From positions 1 to 36,827 of IMG/VR virus record IMGVR_UViG_3300045988_021903: 36,827 bases of DNA; one strand, given 5' to 3'. Source of the DNA: a virus. Below, one piece after another: positions 8,676 to 36,827 of this stretch; position 1 is the first letter of the stretch; every line of letters begins with the position of its first letter. Under the pieces are notes generated by a model that saw only the letters and a program-made list of their open reading frames with translations, was not told the origin of the DNA and made no database searches. The position numbers and the translations under genes are program-made.

Positions 8676-8681
8676 GGATTG

Positions 8682-8716
8682 AGGGGTTAATGTATAAAAA
8701 CGTTAACCCCTTTTTG
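8682..8716 (+). terminator. Rho-independent terminator ending the early/middle unit
   Basis: AGGGGTTAA (8682..8690) pairs with TTAACCCCT (8703..8711), followed by TTTTGTG. Confidence 0.75.
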
Positions 8717-8752
8717 TGTTAAAACCGTTAACACGATTTTGGCGCACTTCTC

Positions 8753-8793
8753 AAAAAACTTTGTGAGAAAAAACTTTGTGAGAGAAAACTTGG
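8753..8793 (+). repeat. 15-nt tandem repeat AAAAAACTTTGTGAG x2 plus a partial third unit
   Basis: Units at 8753..8767 and 8768..8782 are identical. 8783..8793 (agaaaacttgg) is a degenerate third unit. Confidence 0.9.
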
Positions 8794-8806
8794 ATTTTAA
8801 CGGTAT

Positions 8807-8877
8807 TTTGACTAAAAGGCCTGTTTTTGACAAAAAAGTAGTGAAAACGTCTTTGACAACTCAATTTCATGTTTGAC
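8807..8877 (+). repeat. Four spaced TTTGAC boxes (iteron- or operator-like)
   Basis: TTTGAC at 8807, 8826, 8852 and 8872, with spacings of 19, 26 and 20 nt. Confidence 0.8.
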
Positions 8878-8919
8878 GCCTGACCACACTCACAGGACGC
8901 AGAACGCATTTTTCAAGTT

Positions 8920-8951
8920 TTTGATGTCATAGGTTAAAATTTGTATCTTTT
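8920..8951 (+). promoter_or_regulatory. Variant promoter-like box heading repeat element A: TTTG 8920..8923, 20-nt spacer, TATCTTTT 8944..8951
   Basis: Canonical -33 and spacing. The -7 box differs from TAnnTTTG only at its last base. The same arrangement heads element B. Confidence 0.5.
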
Positions 8952-9131
8952 ACACTTAACTCGCTTATTTATAGTACTTTATACTGTAATATAGTGTATT
9001 TGTCATAGATGGAAAGATATATACTAGTGGAGTAACTATTAATAAGTAATAATATAGTTAACATAAATATACTATTGTTATTTTAAATAATTTATTTACG
9101 GTATTTTTTAAATATAATCTATAGGGAAAAC
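8934..9131 (+). repeat. AT-rich non-coding element, copy A (homologous to 29069..29264)
   Basis: 8934..9024 aligns without gaps to 29069..29159 with about 10 mismatches. 9107..9131 aligns to 29240..29264. The spacers are of near-equal length. Confidence 0.9.
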
Positions 9132-9139
9132 GTGTTTTT

Positions 9140-9203
9140 ATCGTTGACATCGTTGACATCGGGCTGAAACGCCCTGTTCATCGGGGTTTTGGGTGTCAAC
9201 GAC
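9140..9203. promoter_or_regulatory. Operator- or pac-like repeat set upstream of terS: tandem ATCGTTGAC x2 plus an inverted copy
   Basis: ATCGTTGAC at 9140..9148 and 9149..9157, with GTCAACGA at 9195..9202. CATCGGG is also repeated, at 9157 and 9179. Confidence 0.6.
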
Positions 9204-9246
9204 AGTTTTGGTAGGTAGAAAGATGGTATTTTGGGCGGAAAAAGCG

Positions 9247-9254
9247 TAATTTTG
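9247..9254 (+). promoter_or_regulatory. -7 box TAATTTTG of the late (terS) promoter
   Basis: Perfect TAnnTTTG 23 nt upstream of the terS ATG. The nearest TTTG elements (9230, 9207) are not at canonical spacing. Confidence 0.55.
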
Positions 9255-19190: not shown

Positions 19191-21704
19191 ATGGCGGATC
19201 AAGTAACACTATTAGACCTTAATTTCGGCACGTCTGAAGCCGAGAAAGGACTAGACGCGTTAATAGCTAAGAGTATGTCCCTTGCAAAGACTAAAAAGGA
19301 TTTGCAAGCGGCCTACGCTTCTGAAAAGAAGGAGCTAGACGCGTTAAATCAGAATTACGCGGACGGTCTTATACAGCAGGACAAGTACGACGCGACGGTT
19401 AAGAAGCTGAATAAGTCTCTGATTGAGACGCAAAAAGCGATACTGGACAATACCGAGGCGAACAAGCAGAACAACGCCGAGATCAAGTCTACAAAAACGC
19501 TTCTCGACAATGAGGCTACGAGCGTTAACGCTTTGCGTGCACAGTTGGCGCAGAACACCACGGAGCTAAACAAGATGAGCGAGGCGCAACGGACCACTAG
19601 CAAAGAGGGGCAAGACCTAACCGAGCAGACCAAGGCGTTATCGGACAAGCTTAAGGAGCTGGAAAAGTCGGTAGGCGACAACCGCCGTAACGTTGGTAAC
19701 TACGCCGAGAGTGTTAAAGACGGTATACTTCAAACGCAGGGGCTGACCGGGGGCACTGGCGCGCTAGTGGGACAGATGAAAGGCGGCATCGCCGGGGTGC
19801 AGGCCTTCAACGCTGCATTAAAGGCCAACCCTATTATTTTTGTTGTGTCTCTCGTCTTAACGCTTATCGGCATTATTGAAAAGCTGATGAAACGCAACAG
19901 CGAGTTAGCGACTAGCCTGCAAGCGGCGTTCGCTCCGTTTAAAGTGATTTTCGGGCGTTTGCTGGACTGGATAACCGGATTGTTTGAAGGTGTGGCGTTC
20001 TTGCTTGAAAACCTTGCTAAAGCCGTTACATGGCTCTTGGATAAGCTAGGGCTTATCAGTGAAGAGACGAAGAGAGCCGCGGCGGAAGGTGCCCGGCTGG
20101 CAGGCGAAACGCAGAAGATTTACCAAGCTGAAACGGCGGCACTCGTACCTATGGCACAGATGCGGCGCGAGATGGAAGAACTTAAGACCCTTGCAGCCGA
20201 CCAAAACAAATCAGCGGCGGAGCGTACAAAATTGCTAGAACGGGCTAGGGAAAAGTTGCACGCTATCCGTGATATGGAGTTGTCGGTACTGGACGCTAAG
20301 TACAAGCAAATCAAAGCCGAGAACCAATTAGGCTATACAAGCGACGAGGACGCACGGAAAGAACAGGAAGCCCTTGCAGCGCTGGAAGCAGCGCGCGCCC
20401 GATACGCTACACAAGAGAAAGAAATGGCGGGGCAGGTGTCCGGCTTCATAAAGCAAGAGAGGGACAAGCAAGCGCAGTACGCACAGGCGGCAGCGGCGAA
20501 AAAAGCGAAGGCAGCAGAAGACGCGGCGAAGCGGGAAGCAGACGCGCAAAAGAAGGCACAGGACGCTATCAAGGCGGCACAGGACGCGCAAATGAAGAAG
20601 TACAACGAAGCGGTTACCGCAATGCAGCTGGACATAGCACAGCGCGAAATAGAAGGGGCTAACATCTCGTTACAGGAACTCCAAGCGGTCAATGATAAAA
20701 AGATCGAGATAGAGACGTACAGACGCGCACAGGGTTTGATTGGAGAACAGGAGTATATTAACAACGTTCGCCAACTCGAGTTGGAATACGCCGCGGAGGC
20801 CAAGGCCCGGAAGGACGAGGAAGATCAGAAGGAAAGAGACCGTCAAGCGCTCAACATGGAGAACGACCGCGCGCTAGCTGATATGAAAATGAACAATGAT
20901 TTGGAAAGCCAACTTGCGAGACTGGACGCGCAGAAGGCTGCCGAGATCGCGAACGCGGAAGCGATCGGAGCGGAAACAACCGCAATAACCGAACGTTTCG
21001 AGATAATGAAGGACGAGCTTAAGCGGAAGTACTATAACGCGCAATTGGAAATGGCAGCGGGCACAGCCGGACAACTCTCTAGCTTACTGGGCGAAGAGAG
21101 CGCGGCGGGCAAAGCATTTGCCACGGCGCAGGCTCTTATCAATACTTATTTGGGCGCGTCTAAAGCACTGGCGCAGGGCGGTATATGGGGTATCGCGCAG
21201 GCGGCTATCGTAGTGGCGGCGGGTATGAAGAACGTTATGAGCATCAACAAAACCAAAGAGCCGGACACCAAGATCAAAACGAGCGTTAAGAAATACGCGA
21301 AGGGCGGACAGATTTACGGAGCTAGCCATGCGGCCGGGGGTGTAACGTTCACCGGATCAAACGGGCAACAGTTCGAGGCCGAGGGTGGAGAAAACATGTA
21401 CATTTTGAACCGGAAGGCCTCCGGCGCGATTAACGCGTTATCAGCCCTTAACATGGAGTACGGCGGGCGTTCGTTCGGTTCGTCCGGTGTGTATCGGTAC
21501 GCCAACGGCGGGAAAATAGACGTAGGCGGCGGTGCGAGCATGCAGTTACCTAGTAATTTTAGCCTATCAAATGACAGCTTGCGAAAATTAGCGGCGATTA
21601 TGTACGATTCAGTGGCTAGCGTTCCCGCTCCACGGGTGGCAGTTACCGACATAGACGAGGGTCAACAACAATATAACAGTGTACAAGTAGCGGCTAGCCT
21701 ATAA
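19191..21704 (+). CDS. Tape measure protein (837 aa)
   Basis: Long coiled-coil, Ala/Lys/Glu/Gln-rich sequence. Internal hydrophobic segments PIIFVVSLVLTLIGII and GIWGIAQAAIVVAAGM. Gly-rich C-terminus. Confidence 0.75.
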   Translation: MADQVTLLDLNFGTSEAEKGLDALIAKSMSLAKTKKDLQAAYASEKKELDALNQNYADGLIQQDKYDATVKKLNKSLIETQKAILDNTEANKQNNAEIKSTKTLLDNEATSVNALRAQLAQNTTELNKMSEAQRTTSKEGQDLTEQTKALSDKLKELEKSVGDNRRNVGNYAESVKDGILQTQGLTGGTGALVGQMKGGIAGVQAFNAALKANPIIFVVSLVLTLIGIIEKLMKRNSELATSLQAAFAPFKVIFGRLLDWITGLFEGVAFLLENLAKAVTWLLDKLGLISEETKRAAAEGARLAGETQKIYQAETAALVPMAQMRREMEELKTLAADQNKSAAERTKLLERAREKLHAIRDMELSVLDAKYKQIKAENQLGYTSDEDARKEQEALAALEAARARYATQEKEMAGQVSGFIKQERDKQAQYAQAAAAKKAKAAEDAAKREADAQKKAQDAIKAAQDAQMKKYNEAVTAMQLDIAQREIEGANISLQELQAVNDKKIEIETYRRAQGLIGEQEYINNVRQLELEYAAEAKARKDEEDQKERDRQALNMENDRALADMKMNNDLESQLARLDAQKAAEIANAEAIGAETTAITERFEIMKDELKRKYYNAQLEMAAGTAGQLSSLLGEESAAGKAFATAQALINTYLGASKALAQGGIWGIAQAAIVVAAGMKNVMSINKTKEPDTKIKTSVKKYAKGGQIYGASHAAGGVTFTGSNGQQFEAEGGENMYILNRKASGAINALSALNMEYGGRSFGSSGVYRYANGGKIDVGGGASMQLPSNFSLSNDSLRKLAAIMYDSVASVPAPRVAVTDIDEGQQQYNSVQVAASL

Positions 21705-25448: not shown

Positions 25449-25964
25449 ATGGAAAAAATTACAGATATAGGGCAGATCGTTTCATTGTGTCAAACAATGA
25501 CTAATCTAAAATTGGATATTGTGTGCGGTGCGGATCGCCTGTTTGCACAACGTTGGTATGAAGAACGCTATTTGACAGGTGTACACACCCGCTATGTGAT
25601 GAAGCCGGGGTTGTTTATCAACTCGATTGAGGACGGAAGAGTGTACCGCGCTTTCAACACAAGCGACGAGAAGGCCGTGGAGTTCATGGACATGAATGAG
25701 AATTACAAGGACTATTTTATAGACTTGCAAGCAGAACCGGAAGCGCCTGTAGAAGGTGAACCGGAAGCGCCTGTAGAAGGCGAACCGGAAGCAGATCCAG
25801 AAGCCGTTCAAGTAATGGCAGCTGATGAACCGGAGATGACCGAAGAAGAGATCGCCGCGGCTAAACGTAGCGAAGCGGCTAAAAAGGCCGCGGCTACTAG
25901 AGCAGCAAACAAGGCAGCGGCAGAAGCCGAAGCAGCCGAGGGTCTTAAGGAGTTCGAAGAGTAA
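25449..25964 (+). CDS. Hypothetical acidic protein (171 aa) with an EPEAPVEG tandem repeat and an Ala/Lys-rich tail
   Basis: Track ORF. The 24-nt in-frame repeat lies at 25734..25793. Confidence 0.65.
   Translation: MEKITDIGQIVSLCQTMTNLKLDIVCGADRLFAQRWYEERYLTGVHTRYVMKPGLFINSIEDGRVYRAFNTSDEKAVEFMDMNENYKDYFIDLQAEPEAPVEGEPEAPVEGEPEADPEAVQVMAADEPEMTEEEIAAAKRSEAAKKAAATRAANKAAAEAEAAEGLKEFEE
25734..25793 (+). repeat. 24-nt in-frame tandem repeat x2.5 (EPEAPVEG)
   Basis: gaaccggaagcgcctgtagaagg(t/c) at 25734 and 25758, with a partial unit at 25782. Confidence 0.9.
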
Positions 25965-28101: not shown

Positions 28102-28390
28102 TAACGTGCTAGACCCTCTTAGGGACGCGTACGGCAAGCCGATCCGGGTTAATAGCGGATATAGATCACCCGCGCTAAACGCGGCGGTGAGAGGTTCTAA
28201 AACGTCGCAGCACTTGAAGGGGCAAGCGGCGGACATTACAGCGGGAAGCAAACAGGAGAATAAGAAACTCTTTGAACTGGCACAGGAACTCAATTTGCCG
28301 TATTGCCAGCTTATCGACGAGAAGAATTTTTCATGGGTGCATATCTCATATGATAAGAACAACGTGAAACGTCAAATTCTGCACCTATGA
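27992..28390 (+). CDS. Endolysin, peptidase M15A-type zinc D-Ala-D-Ala carboxypeptidase-like (132 aa)
   Basis: FTIQELTAS...INNDP...RVNSGYRSPALNAAVRGSKTSQHLKGQAADI...WVHISY carries the H-x6-D...H zinc ligands. Confidence 0.85.
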   Translation: MRNFTIQELTASTTAAAKKINNDPTPEAAENLKLLVDNVLDPLRDAYGKPIRVNSGYRSPALNAAVRGSKTSQHLKGQAADITAGSKQENKKLFELAQELNLPYCQLIDEKNFSWVHISYDKNNVKRQILHL

Positions 28391-28974
28391 AAATAACATT
28401 AAATAAGATATTGGTGTGTTTAGCGGTCCTTCTAGCCATTTTGCTGTACGCGTCGTACAAGACAGTACAGAAACAAAGAAAAGAGCTAGAAAGGCAGGAA
28501 AACAACCTCACCGCGCTTAACACCGAGGCCATAGCATTCAAGACTACGGCAGGAGATTATGCGGAAAAGGCCAGGCAGCTAAAGCTAGAGAAGGACGAGC
28601 TAGAACTATATAACGCTGATCTATATAATAAGGTACGCGAGGCGGGAATAAAGATACGGGAGCTTAAGAACGCTACAAGGGCCGAGACAGTTACCAAGGT
28701 GGACACTGTGGTTAAGACGGAATACCGGGACGGGAACAGAGAAAACCGATTTGCGCACTATTTTGACGGATGGAACGATATACAAGTCGAAGCCCGGCCG
28801 GACACAACAATTATAAAATCTAGTAGTGTTGACACGATCGACGTGATCGGATCAGTCAAACAAAAGCGGTTTTTATTCTTTCGGATCGGAAAACCGAAAC
28901 AAACGATAACCGTATCGAACAAAAACCCAAAATCTAAAATACACGTAGAATTCTCAGCAGAATTCGACAAATAA
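28387..28974 (+). CDS. Membrane-anchored coiled-coil protein (195 aa), spanin-like lysis accessory
   Basis: N-terminal TM segment ILVCLAVLLAILLYA followed by a coiled coil. ATGA overlap with the endolysin gene. It is the last gene of the late unit. Confidence 0.55.
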   Translation: MKITLNKILVCLAVLLAILLYASYKTVQKQRKELERQENNLTALNTEAIAFKTTAGDYAEKARQLKLEKDELELYNADLYNKVREAGIKIRELKNATRAETVTKVDTVVKTEYRDGNRENRFAHYFDGWNDIQVEARPDTTIIKSSSVDTIDVIGSVKQKRFLFFRIGKPKQTITVSNKNPKSKIHVEFSAEFDK

Positions 28975-29024
28975 CGCCTTTCATCTTTTATAAACGACCT
29001 TTCATCTTTCGCACTTGAAAACTC

Positions 29025-29056
29025 AAAACGCTGATTCTTAACGAGTTGGCGTTTTT
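29025..29056 (+). terminator. Candidate terminator ending the late unit
   Basis: AAAACGCTGA (29025..29034) pairs with TTGGCGTTTT (29046..29055), including two G-U pairs. The loop is 11 nt and a T-run follows. Confidence 0.5.
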
Positions 29057-29086
29057 GCTTGTGAATGATTAAAATTTGTATCTTTC
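29054..29086 (+). promoter_or_regulatory. Variant promoter-like box heading repeat element B: TTTG 29054..29057, 21-nt spacer, TATCTTTC 29079..29086
   Basis: Same arrangement as 8920..8951. Confidence 0.5.
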
Positions 29087-29264
29087 GCACTTAACTCACT
29101 AATAACTAGTACTTTATCATATAATATAGTGTATTTGTCAAAGATGGAAAGATGATATATAAGGCTAACAGATAAATATTAGATAATCTATAAAATATGT
29201 AAATATATGAATTAATATGTGAATGAATTTATAGAAATATTTAAATATAAACTAATAGAGAAAC
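29069..29264 (+). repeat. AT-rich non-coding element, copy B (homologous to 8934..9131)
   Basis: See copy A. The offset is a constant 20,135 nt over the first ~90 nt and 20,133 nt at the second conserved block. Confidence 0.9.
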
Positions 29265-29433
29265 TATCATATATCTTTCACACTCCGCCCGTTTTTGCCA
29301 CTTAACTAGCTGATACGCACACAGTTAGGGCGTGAAACATCCGCTTAAAAAGGGCTATTTACCATTGACACCGTTACTAAACCTTCAAAACCGTTAATCA
29401 GAGTTAAAATACTAAAGTTTTTTGGGAAATAGT

Positions 29434-29463
29434 TTTGTAGTTCAAAATAAAGCTGTACCTTTG
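29434..29463 (+). promoter_or_regulatory. Bacteroidota-type promoter (early cassette copy 3, diverged): TTTG 29434..29437, 18-nt spacer, TACCTTTG 29456..29463
   Basis: The whole stretch 29409..29470 aligns with 419..480 (atactaaagttttttg.gaaa..gtttt.gtag...). Confidence 0.7.
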
Positions 29464-29479
29464 TAACATCGAAAGAGAA

Positions 29480-29665
29480 ATGAGAGCGCCGCCAATCGTA
29501 ACCAAAGGGCGCGAGACAGGAAACACGGATGGTATCCTAGTTCATTTGAAAAGACGGTGCGGTATCCGCTTAATTGAAGCTATAAAGCCTGAATCTCGAT
29601 CGATAAAACAACTGAAAAGCCTACTAAATTTGTTGAACTATTCCGATACCGGAGAATCGTTTTAA
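29480..29665 (+). CDS. Hypothetical basic protein (61 aa), or alternatively an untranslated leader
   Basis: The ORF fills the 200-nt space between the promoter and the next gene almost exactly. No family recognised. Confidence 0.4.
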   Translation: MRAPPIVTKGRETGNTDGILVHLKRRCGIRLIEAIKPESRSIKQLKSLLNLLNYSDTGESF

Positions 29666-30007: not shown

Positions 30008-30174
30008 AACTTATCACAGTGGCGGAAGCCGCCCGGTTAGCGGAATGCACCGAAAATGCCATACGCTACCAACTCAACGCCGGAAAGCTGACACGGTACG
30101 AGAACGGCACGGGCAAAATCAGAGTTAGCAAAGAAGAACTAGTAGAAACAATTTTTAATTTTAAGAAAAAATGA
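29995..30174 (+). CDS. Helix-turn-helix DNA-binding protein (59 aa, MerR/excisionase-type HTH), below the track cutoff
   Basis: Read manually: MEKVELITVAEAARLAECTENAIRYQLNAGKLTRYENGTGKIRVSKEELVETIFNFKKK. ATGA overlap with the next gene. Confidence 0.65.
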   Translation: MEKVELITVAEAARLAECTENAIRYQLNAGKLTRYENGTGKIRVSKEELVETIFNFKKK

Positions 30175-30686
30175 AAGTAGTAATCGAATTAATCGGAAAT
30201 GAGAGTAAACAGGATTTGTTGGCAACGTCTAACTATTTGCGCGAGCTGGCGGGAGAAGCCGTACCGGAAGCAACGGAACGTAAAACCGATCTTGACAAGT
30301 TAGCGGACGCGGTTGTAGAAGCAACAAAGGTGAAGGACGAAGAGAAGCCTAAAACAGTGGCCGAGATGGTAGAATCTGAACGCGCAAAGACCCGCGCTAG
30401 ACGTGCCGCGAAACCTGCACCGATCGAAGAGCCTGCAAAGGTAGAAGAGCCTGCAAAGGCAGAAGAGCCTGCAAAGGCAGAAGAACCTGCAAAGGTTGAA
30501 GAACCCGAAACGGATGCAGCATCTTATACGATCGACGATTGCAAGTCCTGGGCTATGAAGGCACTAAACGCTAAGAAACGCCCGATTGTACAAGAAGCAT
30601 TTGAAAGCGTAGGCGCGTCTAGTTTCCCGACGTTGAAGGAGGAGATGTTTAACGATTTTGTTGCATACATTTCAAGCCGTTTATGA
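30171..30686 (+). CDS. Hypothetical acidic protein (171 aa) with an EEPAK(V/A) tandem repeat
   Basis: Track ORF. The 18-nt in-frame repeat lies at 30426..30509. Confidence 0.7.
   Translation: MKVVIELIGNESKQDLLATSNYLRELAGEAVPEATERKTDLDKLADAVVEATKVKDEEKPKTVAEMVESERAKTRARRAAKPAPIEEPAKVEEPAKAEEPAKAEEPAKVEEPETDAASYTIDDCKSWAMKALNAKKRPIVQEAFESVGASSFPTLKEEMFNDFVAYISSRL
30426..30509 (+). repeat. 18-nt in-frame tandem repeat x4.7 (EEPAKV/A)
   Basis: Units gaagagcctgcaaagg.. start at 30426, 30444, 30462 and 30480, with a partial unit at 30498. Confidence 0.9.
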
Positions 30687-31885: not shown

Positions 31886-31915
31886 TTTGAAGTTTAAAAT
31901 AAAGCAATATCTTTG
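31886..31915 (+). promoter_or_regulatory. Bacteroidota-type promoter for the SSB gene: TTTG 31886..31889, 18-nt spacer, TATCTTTG 31908..31915
   Basis: Consensus match. The track ORF start 31913 is the TTG of this -7 box. Confidence 0.7.
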
Positions 31916-34643: not shown

Positions 34644-36827
34644 ATGGAAAAATACACCTTATCGCTTGCAGGTTCTTCGGCTTCATTGAAGTGGAAAGCC
34701 GTACGTATGACTTGGGAAGCATTTTTGGAAAGACTAGGAACGCCCGTTATCACTAACGAAACGGTACGCGAGTTCGATAGACTGGACAAGCCCGCTAAAT
34801 CATCCTTGAAGGACGTGGGCGGATTCATGGCTGGCGAGCTTTCCGGCCCGCAAAGACTTAAAAAGGCCGTTATGTCCCGTTCAATGATCACGCTAGATGT
34901 AGACTTCGGAGATGATCTTTTCCCGTTCGATTTTGCAGATCGTTTTCCGGGTGTGGCGGCAGCTATTTATACCACTAGATCAGACCGTCCCGGATCACGC
35001 CGTTACCGTCTTATTATGCCGTTTAAGGAAGAGGTTACGGACGTTACTATGTACGAAGCCGCGGCGCGTAAAGTAGCCGAGTTGTTAGGTATTGATCTAT
35101 TCGATAAAACAACGTTCCAACCGGAACGTATGATGTACTGGCAATCTCTTTCCAAAGATCAAACCGGACTATTCGAAGTATTCGAAGGTGAGCCGATCAG
35201 CGCGGAGTATCTAATAGGTTTGTACGGAGACAATGAAGAATGGCGCGACGTGCGCAAATGGGCGTTCCATTCAGAAGTAGAACGTGATACCCGTGCCGTT
35301 ATTAGTAAAGAGATGGCGAAAGACCCCCGCGATAAAGGGGGTTTGGTAGGCGCTTTTTGCCGCTCGTACACGATACAGGCAGCAATAGACAAATACCTTT
35401 CAGACGTTTACACAGAAGCGGAAAACGGCCGCTATACGTACGTTCTTGGATCGGGTGCGGCTGGCTTAGTTGTGTATGACGACGTACTTTGTTTTTCTCA
35501 CCACTCAACCGACCCGATAGGAGACGGACACGCATACAACGCTTATGATTTGGTACGTGTGCACAAGTTCGGGCACCTGGGTAAGGAAGACAGCACCCGC
35601 GAGATGAACAAGCTAATTTGCGCCGATAAAGAATGCGTTAAGGATATGGTAGCCGTGGACGATGATCTAGCCGACTTCGAGGAGTACACGGACGATGTTA
35701 AGAGCGACGCGCAGACCGCCGAGGAACTTGTTTGGGACTTGGATAAAAAAGGCGATAAGCTGTGCACCGTGCGTAACTTCGTTAACGCTTTCAAATGTGA
35801 CCCGCTATTAAATGATCTGCTAGCTTATGACTTGTTTCTCGATACGATCGTGTACACCCGTACGCCGTTCTTCTCGAAAGACATCAAGAAGGGTGATATG
35901 TTGGACGACACAGCAGTAGCAATTATCCGTGGACGTATAGAGGATTTGCACGGTATTTATAATGACAGCAAATTAAACGATGCACTGGAAAAGGTTTGCA
36001 GTGAAAACGCTTTCCACCCTATCAAAAAATATCTAGAGGCGCAAAGGTGGGACGGCGTGAAACGTATTGATAATTTCTTAGTTGAATACATGGGCGCAGA
36101 ACCTAGTATATACGTTTCTGAGGCGTTCCGTAAAATGTTGGTTGCGGCTGTTGCTAGAGTTTATGAGCCGGGCCGCAAATTTGATACGGCGCTTGTTATG
36201 TATTCAGGACAGGGCGCGGGAAAGTCCACGCTTATACAGGCGTTGTCTAAAGGGTGGTTCAACGATTCATTAACGGACGTGTCCGGGCAAAAAGCATACG
36301 AGGCGATACAACATGCTTGGATCGTGGAGCTAGCCGAGTTGTCAGCCCTTCGCCGTTCGGACGTGGAAGCCACGAAGAACTTTATTAGCAAGCGTGAAGA
36401 TACGTATCGTAGTGCATACGCCCGCCGGGTAAAGACACACCGCCGACAATGTGTATTTTTCGGGTCTACAAATGATGATGAGTTTTTGAAGGACAAGACC
36501 GGCAACCGCCGTTTCTTTCCGATCGAGGTTTGCGCCAACAAGAACACGCACAAACTTTTTGAAAAGTCTTTCGAGGCGGTGGTAGACCAACTTTGGGCGG
36601 AAGCAATGGAGCTGTACATGTTGGGTGAAAGCCTTGTTTTGTCTGACGAAGCCGAAGCGATTGCCAACGAGGGACGTGAAGAATTTACAGAAGAAAGTCC
36701 GCTAGTAGGTATTATAGAAAACTACGTAGATAAGCTTTTCCCGGCCGACTACGAAGATCGCACCGAACAACAACGCGCTGACTTCCTATCCGGATCGCTG
36801 GAAGAAGTGGGAACGGTTCAAAAAAAC
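34644..36827 (+). CDS. Bifunctional AEP-type primase / VirE (D5-like) helicase; open at the window end and continuing in 1..306 (796 aa in total)
   Basis: Not in the ORF track because there is no stop before the window end. MITLDVDFGDD (34884) is the AEP DxD motif, followed by FSHHSTDP...NAYDLVRVHKFG. Walker A GQGAGKST is at 36207..36230. The frame is continuous with 1..306. Confidence 0.85.
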   Translation, partial: MEKYTLSLAGSSASLKWKAVRMTWEAFLERLGTPVITNETVREFDRLDKPAKSSLKDVGGFMAGELSGPQRLKKAVMSRSMITLDVDFGDDLFPFDFADRFPGVAAAIYTTRSDRPGSRRYRLIMPFKEEVTDVTMYEAAARKVAELLGIDLFDKTTFQPERMMYWQSLSKDQTGLFEVFEGEPISAEYLIGLYGDNEEWRDVRKWAFHSEVERDTRAVISKEMAKDPRDKGGLVGAFCRSYTIQAAIDKYLSDVYTEAENGRYTYVLGSGAAGLVVYDDVLCFSHHSTDPIGDGHAYNAYDLVRVHKFGHLGKEDSTREMNKLICADKECVKDMVAVDDDLADFEEYTDDVKSDAQTAEELVWDLDKKGDKLCTVRNFVNAFKCDPLLNDLLAYDLFLDTIVYTRTPFFSKDIKKGDMLDDTAVAIIRGRIEDLHGIYNDSKLNDALEKVCSENAFHPIKKYLEAQRWDGVKRIDNFLVEYMGAEPSIYVSEAFRKMLVAAVARVYEPGRKFDTALVMYSGQGAGKSTLIQALSKGWFNDSLTDVSGQKAYEAIQHAWIVELAELSALRRSDVEATKNFISKREDTYRSAYARRVKTHRRQCVFFGSTNDDEFLKDKTGNRRFFPIEVCANKNTHKLFEKSFEAVVDQLWAEAMELYMLGESLVLSDEAEAIANEGREEFTEESPLVGIIENYVDKLFPADYEDRTEQQRADFLSGSLEEVGTVQKN
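36729..36827. repeat. Terminal overlap copy 2, identical to 1..99
   Basis: Same 99 nt as the window start (gataagcttttcccggccgac...ggttcaaaaaaac). Confidence 0.95.

Follow-up and report, generated by a model that had tools for sequence, protein, structure and literature searches.

The phage genome in IMG/VR virus record IMGVR_UViG_3300045988_021903 carries the same AT-rich, non-coding element twice, once in each of its two largest non-coding stretches, which raises the question of what such a duplicated element may do there. The window analysed here is the whole stretch of 36,827 nucleotides (nt), the ends of which overlap exactly over 99 nt (positions 1-99 are identical to 36729-36827), and it should therefore be regarded as a circularly closed assembly of a complete genome of ~36.7 kb. 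All genes of the window are on the plus strand, and their order, as taken from the annotation of GenBank relatives, consists of an early/replication module (a helix-turn-helix protein, a DUF2800 nuclease, SSB, DNA polymerase A, a VapE-type primase-helicase, VRR-NUC, a SNF2-type helicase and methylases), a first gap (gap A), terS, terL, structural and lysis genes, a second gap (gap B), and then the early genes again. Both copies of the element are oriented like all genes, copy A being flanked by the early module and terS, and copy B by the late module and the first early promoter. The phage is a virulent Bacteroides siphophage, and gap A is matched with 82-92% identity by 19 GenBank phages from the hosts Bacteroides ovatus, B. 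kribbi and B. koreensis, which correspond to group 3 of the proposed "Bacteroiduroviridae" (PMC12694917). From sequence analysis, we consider it likely that the two elements are copies of one Rep/iteron replication origin, similar to those on which self-loading helicases like the SaPI Rep proteins act, because iteron-like repeats flank an AT-rich spacer and co-vary with the C-terminal tail of the primase-helicase.

The duplication is genuine and far above chance. A repeat search aligned a core of 101 nt without gaps (8918-9018 with 29053-29153, 82% identity), and BLASTN of the genome against itself extended the match to 8917-9129 and 29051-29263 (73.4% over 222 columns, E = 4e-25), which makes the A/B pair the strongest internal repeat of the genome, the early-promoter repeats excepted. 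A 19-mer taken from the core occurs exactly twice in the window, against an expectation of 0.02 occurrences. An earlier description, referred to here as the original prediction, had recognized the pair, and much of it holds: the spacers between its two aligned blocks are of nearly equal length (82 and 80 nt) and very AT-rich (16% G+C), both copies are headed by promoter-like motifs, the two gaps are indeed the two largest non-coding stretches of the genome, and no open reading frame (ORF) is shared between the copies (MERYILVE-stop vs. MER-stop), the small ORFs annotated at this place in relatives not being conserved either. Its alignment of 8934-9024 with 29069-29159 is ungapped as claimed, but contains 17 mismatches in 91 nt instead of about 10, the excess at the end being caused by a 1-nt indel after GAAAGAT, and the match between 9107-9131 and 29240-29264 exists, but with 6 mismatches in 25 nt. 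The extent of the element was also drawn too narrowly, because the homologous unit reaches further on both sides and includes repeated motifs of 8-9 nt which had been missed.

These motifs are visible in the alignments of copy A (32 genomes) and copy B (34 genomes) as variants of approximately G-T/G-N-AA-N-GAT, such as GTCAAAGAT, GGAAAGAT and GTCAACGAT, and will be called iterons in the following. Copy A and its surroundings contain about 8-10 such sites, the surroundings of copy B about 6, and 10 of the 41 pattern matches in the entire genome fall into the two gaps, which make up 3% of its length (p = 3e-7). The centre of copy A is formed by a tandem pair of left iterons on the plus strand (9001-9018, TGTCATAGAT-GGAAAGAT, identified by a regular expression over 16 genomes), an AT-rich spacer of ~120 nt (9019-9139), and a right pair on the minus strand (9140-9157, twice GTCAACGAT), which runs in the opposite direction to the left pair and is a perfect inverted copy of it over 17-22 nt in L021, L019, L018, L017 and L025. 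The spacer represents a putative DNA-unwinding element: the 80-nt window starting at 9037 contains 10% G+C and is tied with that starting at 29172 in copy B as the lowest of the genome, compared to 17.5% for the next-lowest window and a genome average of 46%. Downstream of the right pair follow a further iteron on the plus strand (9195-9203, GTCAACGAC), which is complementary to 9140-9157 over 9-13 bp in nearly all genomes and in at least 8 different sequence versions, and an iteron-like site on the same strand at 9215-9226 (GTAGAAAGATGG). A small conserved hairpin of the plus strand (9163-9197, CTGAAAC-loop-GTTTYRG, RNAalifold columns 220-248) is placed between the right pair and the 9195 site. 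In IMG/VR contig 3300045988_038600 (L041:865-1194), the loop of this hairpin, corresponding to window 9172-9190, is inverted from CGCCCTGTTCATCGGGG to CCCCGATGAACAGGGCG with the CTGAAAC/GTTTCAG stem retained; the same contig is the sole exception to the pairing of Arg with TGTCAA described below and may be a recent recombinant.

Upstream of the left iterons, copy A begins with a promoter-like motif of the Bacteroides -33/-7 type with one mismatch (8920-8951, plus strand, TTTG-N20-TATCTTTT), which would act as a promoter if judged from its sequence, and continues with a left block common to both copies (8952-9000, ACTTAAC...TAATATAGTGTATTTG), the mean pairwise identity of which is 0.87-0.92 over 32 genomes. 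The -7 box of the motif can be read equally as a minus-strand iteron (GTAAAAGAT, 8945-8953), and the head motif is therefore only a possible promoter, from which transcripts might run into the origin. Across the relatives, both copies preserve GATTAAAATTTGTATCTTT completely or almost completely, with few single-base exceptions. Two outlying iteron-like sites precede the motif, one found by the pattern scan at 8849-8857 on the minus strand (GTCAAAGAC), whose G/T state tracks the iteron type of the respective genome in the alignment of 32 genomes, and a weaker one at ~8869-8878 (CATGTTTGAC).

Copy B is built from the same parts. Its promoter-like motif (29054-29086, plus strand, TTTG-N21-TATCTTTC) was found by a promoter scan, its left iteron pair occupies 29136-29153 on the plus strand (TGTCAAAGAT-GGAAAGAT), and its AT-rich spacer, again a putative unwinding element, extends from 29154 to 29272. 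On the right side, there is a single clear iteron on the minus strand (29273-29281, GTGAAAGAT). Part of the spacer (29183-29242) shows identities of 0.93-0.99 across 34 genomes, with some stretches at 0.98-0.99, and so exceeds the flanking genes; this constraint goes beyond mere AT-richness and might stem from sites at which another factor binds, or at which the initiator contacts single strands. The same segment contains an ATATG..AAT pattern with a period of ~11 nt. Outlying iteron-like sites are also present here, namely two on the minus strand upstream of the copy (28979-29016, CCTTTCATCTTTTAT and CCTTTCATCTTTCGCAC), inverted relative to the core of copy B, and one downstream on the minus strand (29362-29371, CCATTGACAC, which reads CATTTACAC in genomes of the TGTAAA type in a 15-genome alignment). 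The second of the upstream sites is a perfect inverted copy of the core over 15 nt in L020 and L022 and changes to CATCTTTTAC in L025, in step with the core. A probable intrinsic terminator of the late operon (29029-29056, plus strand, a 9-bp stem with G-U pairs followed by TTTTT; 0.95-0.96 identity across 34 genomes) overlaps with its T run the -33 TTTG of copy B, but belongs to the context rather than to the proposed origin proper. The left block of copy B exists in two forms among the relatives (29096-29106; L006, L020, L022, L001, L023, L025 and L027), either as ACTAATAACTAGT or as the copy A form GCTTATTTATAGT, which points to gene conversion with copy A as the donor.

A view on the variation among the relatives shows that the iterons change together. 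The inverted pairs co-vary within genomes (core with right arm, and right arm with the 9195 site; p < 2e-4 each in a permutation test over the 32 genomes), and so do the direct pairs (core with the 9195 site, core with the 9215 site, and 9195 with 9215; p = 2e-4 each), although boxes of the same orientation cannot pair with each other. Moreover, the two copies, although separated by 20 kb, agree in the TGTCAA or TGTAAA state of their iterons in all 16 complete genomes and in most of the IMG/VR contigs. When many sites change in concert, irrespective of their orientation and at two separate loci, this marks them as sites bound by a single protein that is specific to the lineage. A single long RNA or DNA hairpin formed by the core and the right arm had looked compensatory by eye (CATAG/CTATG vs. 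CAAAG/CTTTG), but was dropped as the main explanation, because the direct repeats co-vary equally, the G-U and A-C mismatches between the two arms are balanced (16 vs. 13), and divergence of the arm is evident in the window.

The candidate for this protein is the primase-helicase of 796 amino acids, whose ORF on the plus strand crosses the window junction (34644-36827 and then 1-306, or 34644-36728 plus 1-306 without the overlap). It contains a VapE-like domain (Pfam PF05272, residues 464-682, E = 4e-76) and matches helicases over its full length and primases over residues 4-359 in PHROGs. Its only relative in the PDB is 7PDS (phmmer to 7pds_A, E = 2.2e-73, residues 386-711), which represents SaPI1 Rep1 with DNA (PMC9371898). 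The C-terminal 101 residues, encoded by 1-306 on the plus strand, are predicted to form a winged-helix DNA-binding domain (AlphaFold2, pLDDT 88.5) of the topology H-S-H-H-S-wing-S, and a Foldseek search with this tail model returned the 7pds chains as top hits (TM 0.67-0.69, probability 1.0), followed by classic winged-helix DNA binders.

The link between this tail and the iterons comes from an alignment of 16 complete genomes to the window, in which only 7 out of 9620 variable sites segregate perfectly with the iteron type. Five of these sites are located in the elements themselves (9004, 9012, 9134, 9155 and 29139), while the other two, 247 and 248, belong to one and the same codon of the primase-helicase gene. 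This codon (247-249) specifies Arg778 of the 796 residues, which is placed at the tip of the beta-hairpin wing in the AlphaFold2 model; the residue is Arg in the genomes with TGTCAA and Ala or Ser in those with TGTAAA. With IMG/VR contigs added, 43 genomes are informative, comprising 18 with Arg and TGTCAA, 24 with another residue (A, S, V or Q) and TGTAAA, one with Arg and TGTAAA, and none with another residue and TGTCAA, so that the rule holds in 42 of 43 cases (naive Fisher test, p = 3e-11). Three contigs (047290, 036744 and 020353) have tails which are identical over the last 45 residues save for position 778, and their iteron types differ to match. In both core units, Arg is paired with a G:C base pair and the other residues with A:T. 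The link carries weight because of the location of the codon, its chemistry and its replication in further genomes, and from this co-variation we infer that the winged-helix tail would be the part of the protein in contact with the iterons.

Conservation speaks for a function of the elements. A search with a profile of the core found both copies at the same two places and in the same orientation in ~45 related Bacteroides phage genomes or contigs, i.e., in every close relative, and the non-coding element is conserved as well as the flanking genes. The same profile did not detect the element by nhmmer in more distant relatives with genomes of 33 kb. However, in these phages (~38% identity in the DUF6549 protein, whose gene at 28387-28971 precedes copy B), the equivalent gap follows the same plan with another repeat, TGCACAG/CTGTGCA, around an AT patch, and 11 of 13 such B. 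uniformis phages in GenBank possess two matching places per genome. In phage BU3-1 (L235, PQ571283), these places (2101-2695 and 19360-19986) share a duplicate of 229 nt with 83% identity, one copy being found in front of terS and the other behind the last late gene, and 10 of the 11 occurrences of the 7-mer of its iteron, TGCACAG(AT), in the genome are inside the two clusters. The wing of the BU3-1 primase-helicase reads GIGRSRGF, and a plus-strand ORF annotated inside its element (gp24, 19553-19777) is probably spurious. The two-copy plan at the module boundaries should thus be older than the iteron sequence, as it is kept in a distant lineage with a different repeat. The claim that the element is a functional cis element rather than a product of drift is therefore well supported, since non-coding sequence is conserved like the flanking genes and the two-copy layout persists in a lineage with other sequence. 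Among the three functions originally proposed for it, with a preference for a role at the level of DNA, the evidence backs the pair of origins or DNA-unwinding elements; the AT palindromes that had been cited in its favour are not what carries this interpretation, and the flanking iterons and their co-variation with the primase-helicase tail were not part of the earlier argument.

Several observations weigh against a Rep/iteron origin and should be considered together. In these mosaic genomes, it is not uncommon for distant sites to co-segregate perfectly (14% of all site patterns recur more than 5 kb away), and the 16-genome scan alone is weak for this reason; the Fisher test ignores shared ancestry, contig 038600 combines Arg with TGTAAA, and two genomes contain mixed copies. 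With respect to the elements, only one clear iteron is present to the right of the copy B spacer, and the right arm of copy A (GTCAACGAT) is unlike the left arm (GTCATAGAT / GGAAAGAT), so that one protein would have to accept both. The iteron core also resembles the host -7 box (TAnnTTTG, e.g., TATCTTTG), and some of the "iterons" may be promoter elements instead. Finally, the elements are 7.6-8.7 kb away from the rep gene, unlike the situation in SaPIs, and GC skew, which climbs monotonically over the genome, gives no information on origins because all genes are on one strand.

From the anatomy, conservation, concerted site change, protein family and fold, and residue-base co-variation computed here, we infer that protein binding, melting and initiation would take place at the elements. 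The C-terminal winged helix of the fused primase-helicase would read the iterons, with Arg778 at the tip of the wing helping to set which iteron variant is recognized, and the protein would assemble on both sides of the spacer, melt it, load itself and prime synthesis. The conserved promoter-like motif of host type reading into each copy may help to activate the origin. With much less confidence, the two copies may be suspected to be more than redundant starting points. They might split the circular genome, coded on a single strand, into an early and a late replichore, with each origin firing along the direction of transcription, an idea which we regard as tentative and doubtful at present. 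It would fit the same-sense orientation of the copies, their exact positions at the module boundaries, and the maintenance of the plan in two lineages with different iterons. A programmed fork barrier would then be provided by initiator sitting on the next copy, replication would never meet transcription head-on, forks halted at the second copy would set off the change to the synthesis of concatemers, in line with the proposal for SPP1 oriR, and packaging and the expression of late genes would be tied to replication by the melting of the origin beside terS.

Other explanations of the elements have to be measured against the same data. A phage regulator (possibly the primase-helicase tail, or else another protein) might use the repeats as operators or decoy -7 boxes, so that the elements would serve as platforms for transcription control at the early/late boundaries, controlling the head motif and read-through into terS or the early genes, with the AT-rich DNA being used for bending rather than unwinding. 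Their exact position at the module boundaries would suit this role, as would the conserved TTTG-N20/21-TAnnTTT(T/C/G) in gene direction in both copies, which reaches perfect consensus in some relatives, the sequence ATCTTT[CT][AG]CAC, which overlaps the iteron core, is -7-like and has all of its 4 genome occurrences in the gaps, and the pairing of the copy A right arm with the 9195 site, which yields a stem with TTTT behind it and could attenuate transcription. However, terS has its own perfect -7 box (TAATTTTG, 9247-9254) at a normal distance from its ATG, and a perfect promoter is available to the first early gene at 29434, and therefore neither module needs the internal motif of the element; the co-varying protein is a homologue of replication initiators and not a known regulator, and an extremely AT-rich centre between inverted sites is the layout of a SaPI origin. 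We therefore regard transcription control as rather unlikely to be the main function, although it could, like the early/late nucleoprotein platform named in the original prediction, be a second role beside that of an origin. A leader or small RNA starting from the promoter-like motif and acting by its structure, either as an attenuator or by antitermination like the put sites of HK022, had also been put forward in the original prediction. Like put, the element is a non-coding sequence present in two copies downstream of promoters and along the direction of transcription, with the promoter-like motif pointing into both of them. The fold of copy A RNA is somewhat more stable than that of shuffled sequence (z = -2.37), the hairpin at 9163-9197 tolerates C/U and A/G changes which preserve G-U pairs, and G-U exceeds A-C mismatches by 15 to 5 in the pairing of the right arm with the 9195 site. 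Yet most of these 15 cases come from one inherited position, the core and right arm show no such excess, the hairpin loop is inverted in L041, and copy B does not fold better than shuffled sequence (z = -0.21), which means that no structure is common to both copies. Rfam produced no match on either strand, neither at the gathering cut-off nor at E <= 1, and RNAalifold, run on the alignment of relatives, gave a weak consensus fold for a "leader" of 330 nt (-13 kcal/mol, covariation term -1.2) with double changes in only 2 of 36 pairs. The put RNA, in contrast, folds into two conserved stem-loops, and no conserved or common RNA structure was found here. As an RNA also offers no reason for sites 20 kb apart and a protein codon to change together, and as direct repeats co-vary as strongly as inverted ones, this explanation appears very improbable.

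The location of copy A directly upstream of terS, its end being about 50-140 nt away from the terS start, evokes a packaging signal, i.e., a pac or cos site with binding sites for TerS, and repeats in both orientations around bent AT-rich DNA recall cosB or pac regions. The GenBank record of phage BKO1-1 even begins within gap A, at the equivalent of window 8812, but this is upstream of the duplicated unit, no evidence was found on the choice of this start, and termini are not mentioned in the paper on this group (PMC12694917). Moreover, every relative, like the distant lineage, has a second and equally conserved copy at the other end of the late module, at a distance of 20 kb, and no position in terS or terL segregates with the iteron type among the 16 complete genomes, which leaves a packaging function with hardly more than a slight chance. 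The elements might finally be miniature inverted-repeat mobile elements or plain duplicated junk residing in two gaps, as two copies occur per genome and copy A shows perfect terminal-like inverted repeats of 17-22 nt, ~115 nt apart, in several relatives. Against this stand the constant position and orientation in ~45 relatives and also in the distant lineage with its otherwise replaced sequence, a conservation equal to or exceeding that of the coding flanks, an inter-copy similarity reaching well outside the inverted repeats, and the result of a 19-mer search, which found no copies outside this phage group except in one unrelated family, probably by chance. No case was seen of the element at variable positions, or in unrelated genomes together with target-site duplications, and we hardly give this explanation any credence. 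A diversity-generating retroelement or an invertible promoter was rejected, as the mismatches show no specificity for adenine and the repeats have the same orientation, although no search for a reverse transcriptase was made. The minus strand of the core also contains a sigma-70-like TTGACA-N17-TATAAA, which was set aside on grounds of host sigma preference, since the primary sigma factor of Bacteroides is not known to use a TTGACA/TATAAA consensus.

The matches of the 19-mer in the unrelated phages (IMG/VR contigs L004, L007, L009, L010, L012, L013 and L015) extend over 21-25 nt only and were discarded as probably due to chance. They are located in the promoter region upstream of a gene for a T4 gp32-like SSB in contigs of 13-144 kb (e.g., L009:2060-2200; TATCAT..AATATAGTGTATTTGTCAA), where the strand of the match at the SSB gene reads TTGACA-N17-TACAAT.

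Comparison of the proposed duplicated Rep/iteron origin with known systems shows the closest correspondence to the SaPIs. SaPI Reps are self-loading helicases and replication initiators whose C-terminal winged helix recognizes iterons of 5-6 nt, and a SaPI origin consists of 6-12 iterons and an AT-rich centre, with at least two iterons per side in opposite directions (PMC9371898); in SaPI5, primase and Rep are fused to PriRep5 (PMC9371898; PDB 7PDS, 7OLA). The phage shares a homologous initiator with a VapE-like ATPase core (E = 2e-73 to Rep1) and a predicted C-terminal winged helix, the fusion of primase and helicase known from PriRep5, and short clustered iterons on both sides of an AT-rich centre and in opposite directions. 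Two iterons per side are found in copy A (2+2), whereas copy B reaches this number only on the left (2 left, 1 right). The iteron sequence is lineage-specific in both systems and pairs with the C-terminal domain of the initiator, as judged for the phage from the in silico comparison of genomes (42 of 43). Differences exist in the number of origin copies per genome, two in the phage and one in a SaPI, and in their location: the SaPI origin is found immediately downstream of rep, whereas the phage rep gene ends at 306 with no iteron cluster after it and the elements are placed at about 8.9-9.2 kb and 29.0-29.4 kb. The phage iterons are also longer (8-9 vs. 5-6 nt) and the spacer spans ~120 nt, each copy has in addition a conserved promoter-like motif and a conserved block of ~50 nt, and the carrier is not a Gram-positive satellite island, but a virulent Bacteroides siphophage. 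In terms of mechanism and initiator family, the elements would thus qualify as SaPI-type origins which lack one descriptive feature, the adjacency to rep.

A precedent for two origin copies is provided by phage SPP1, where oriL and oriR are ~13 kb apart, follow one plan and are both bound by gp38 (PMC6316719), and where fork stalling at gp38-bound oriR has been proposed to trigger the switch to concatemers (PMC6316719; PMC3485210). Likewise, the phage studied here contains two origin-like elements kilobases apart with repeats and an AT-rich unwinding element, one of them in an intergenic stretch of the late region, has almost all genes on one strand like SPP1, and is proposed to use one protein for both copies. 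Unlike in SPP1, where a separate origin binder (gp38), a loader (gp39) and a DnaB-type helicase (gp40) cooperate, a single primase-helicase polypeptide would be responsible, and no gp38/gp39/gp40 set is present among the genes of the annotated relatives; further, oriL is inside gene 38, whereas both phage copies are intergenic, and there is no sequence relationship. Satellite phage P4 represents another relevant case, as its ori and crr regions carry the same short repeats, which are read by the C-terminal winged helix of the fused primase-helicase alpha. Two separate cis regions with common short repeats are therefore found in both phages, but crr assists ori in the manner of an enhancer and is not a complete second copy of it, and the repeat sequence and details of the helicase family differ. 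Taken together, the elements are most likely origins of a familiar kind, with the unusual feature of being present twice. The GenBank records that were examined contain no annotated origin, and none is mentioned in the one paper found on the "Bacteroiduroviridae" (PMC12694917).

Some further features of the gaps and their surroundings may be added. The early operon ends with a strong intrinsic terminator at 8681-8716 (GGGGTTAA...TTAACCCC, followed by TTTTT), for which the relatives have a different stem sequence at the same place, indicating compensatory replacement. The upstream half of gap A (8748-8847) is without counterpart in gap B and contains a tandem repeat of two copies of AAAAACTTTGTGAGA (8753-8785) as well as the near-invariant GTTTTTGACAAAAAAGTAG (0.95 identity); a packaging signal or a regulator site for the late genes are candidates for this segment, and the start of the BKO1-1 record mentioned above falls into it. 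The early region contains four perfect Bacteroides-type promoters of the form TTTG-N18/19-TA(T/C)CTTTG (413-515, 2770-2872, 29403-29481 and 31886-31915), which have extended upstream and leader sequences in common, 462-515 being identical to 2819-2872. In-frame tandem repeats were found inside two ORFs, namely 18 nt x5 at 30396-30513 (ORF 30171-30686) and 24 nt x3 at 25729-25803 (ORF 25449-25964), and both tracts encode linkers rich in Pro, Ala, Glu and Lys. A search for tRNA and tmRNA genes found none.

The "Bacteroiduroviridae" are abundant in the human gut and easily cultured, but most of their genes are without assigned function. The analysis presented here yields exact coordinates for two candidate origins of these phages, names the putative initiator together with its predicted DNA-reading domain, and predicts that a single residue, Arg778, sets the preference for one base pair. 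It would extend the Rep/iteron mechanism of the SaPIs from Gram-positive satellites to virulent phages of the Bacteroidota, and in practical terms, the elements could be employed as phage-dependent replicons or as specificity modules for the engineering of Bacteroides phages. While nothing established is overturned, a gap would be filled for an abundant family of gut phages, and the conserved plan of two origins at the module boundaries bears on the question of how replication, late transcription and packaging are coordinated in small phages.

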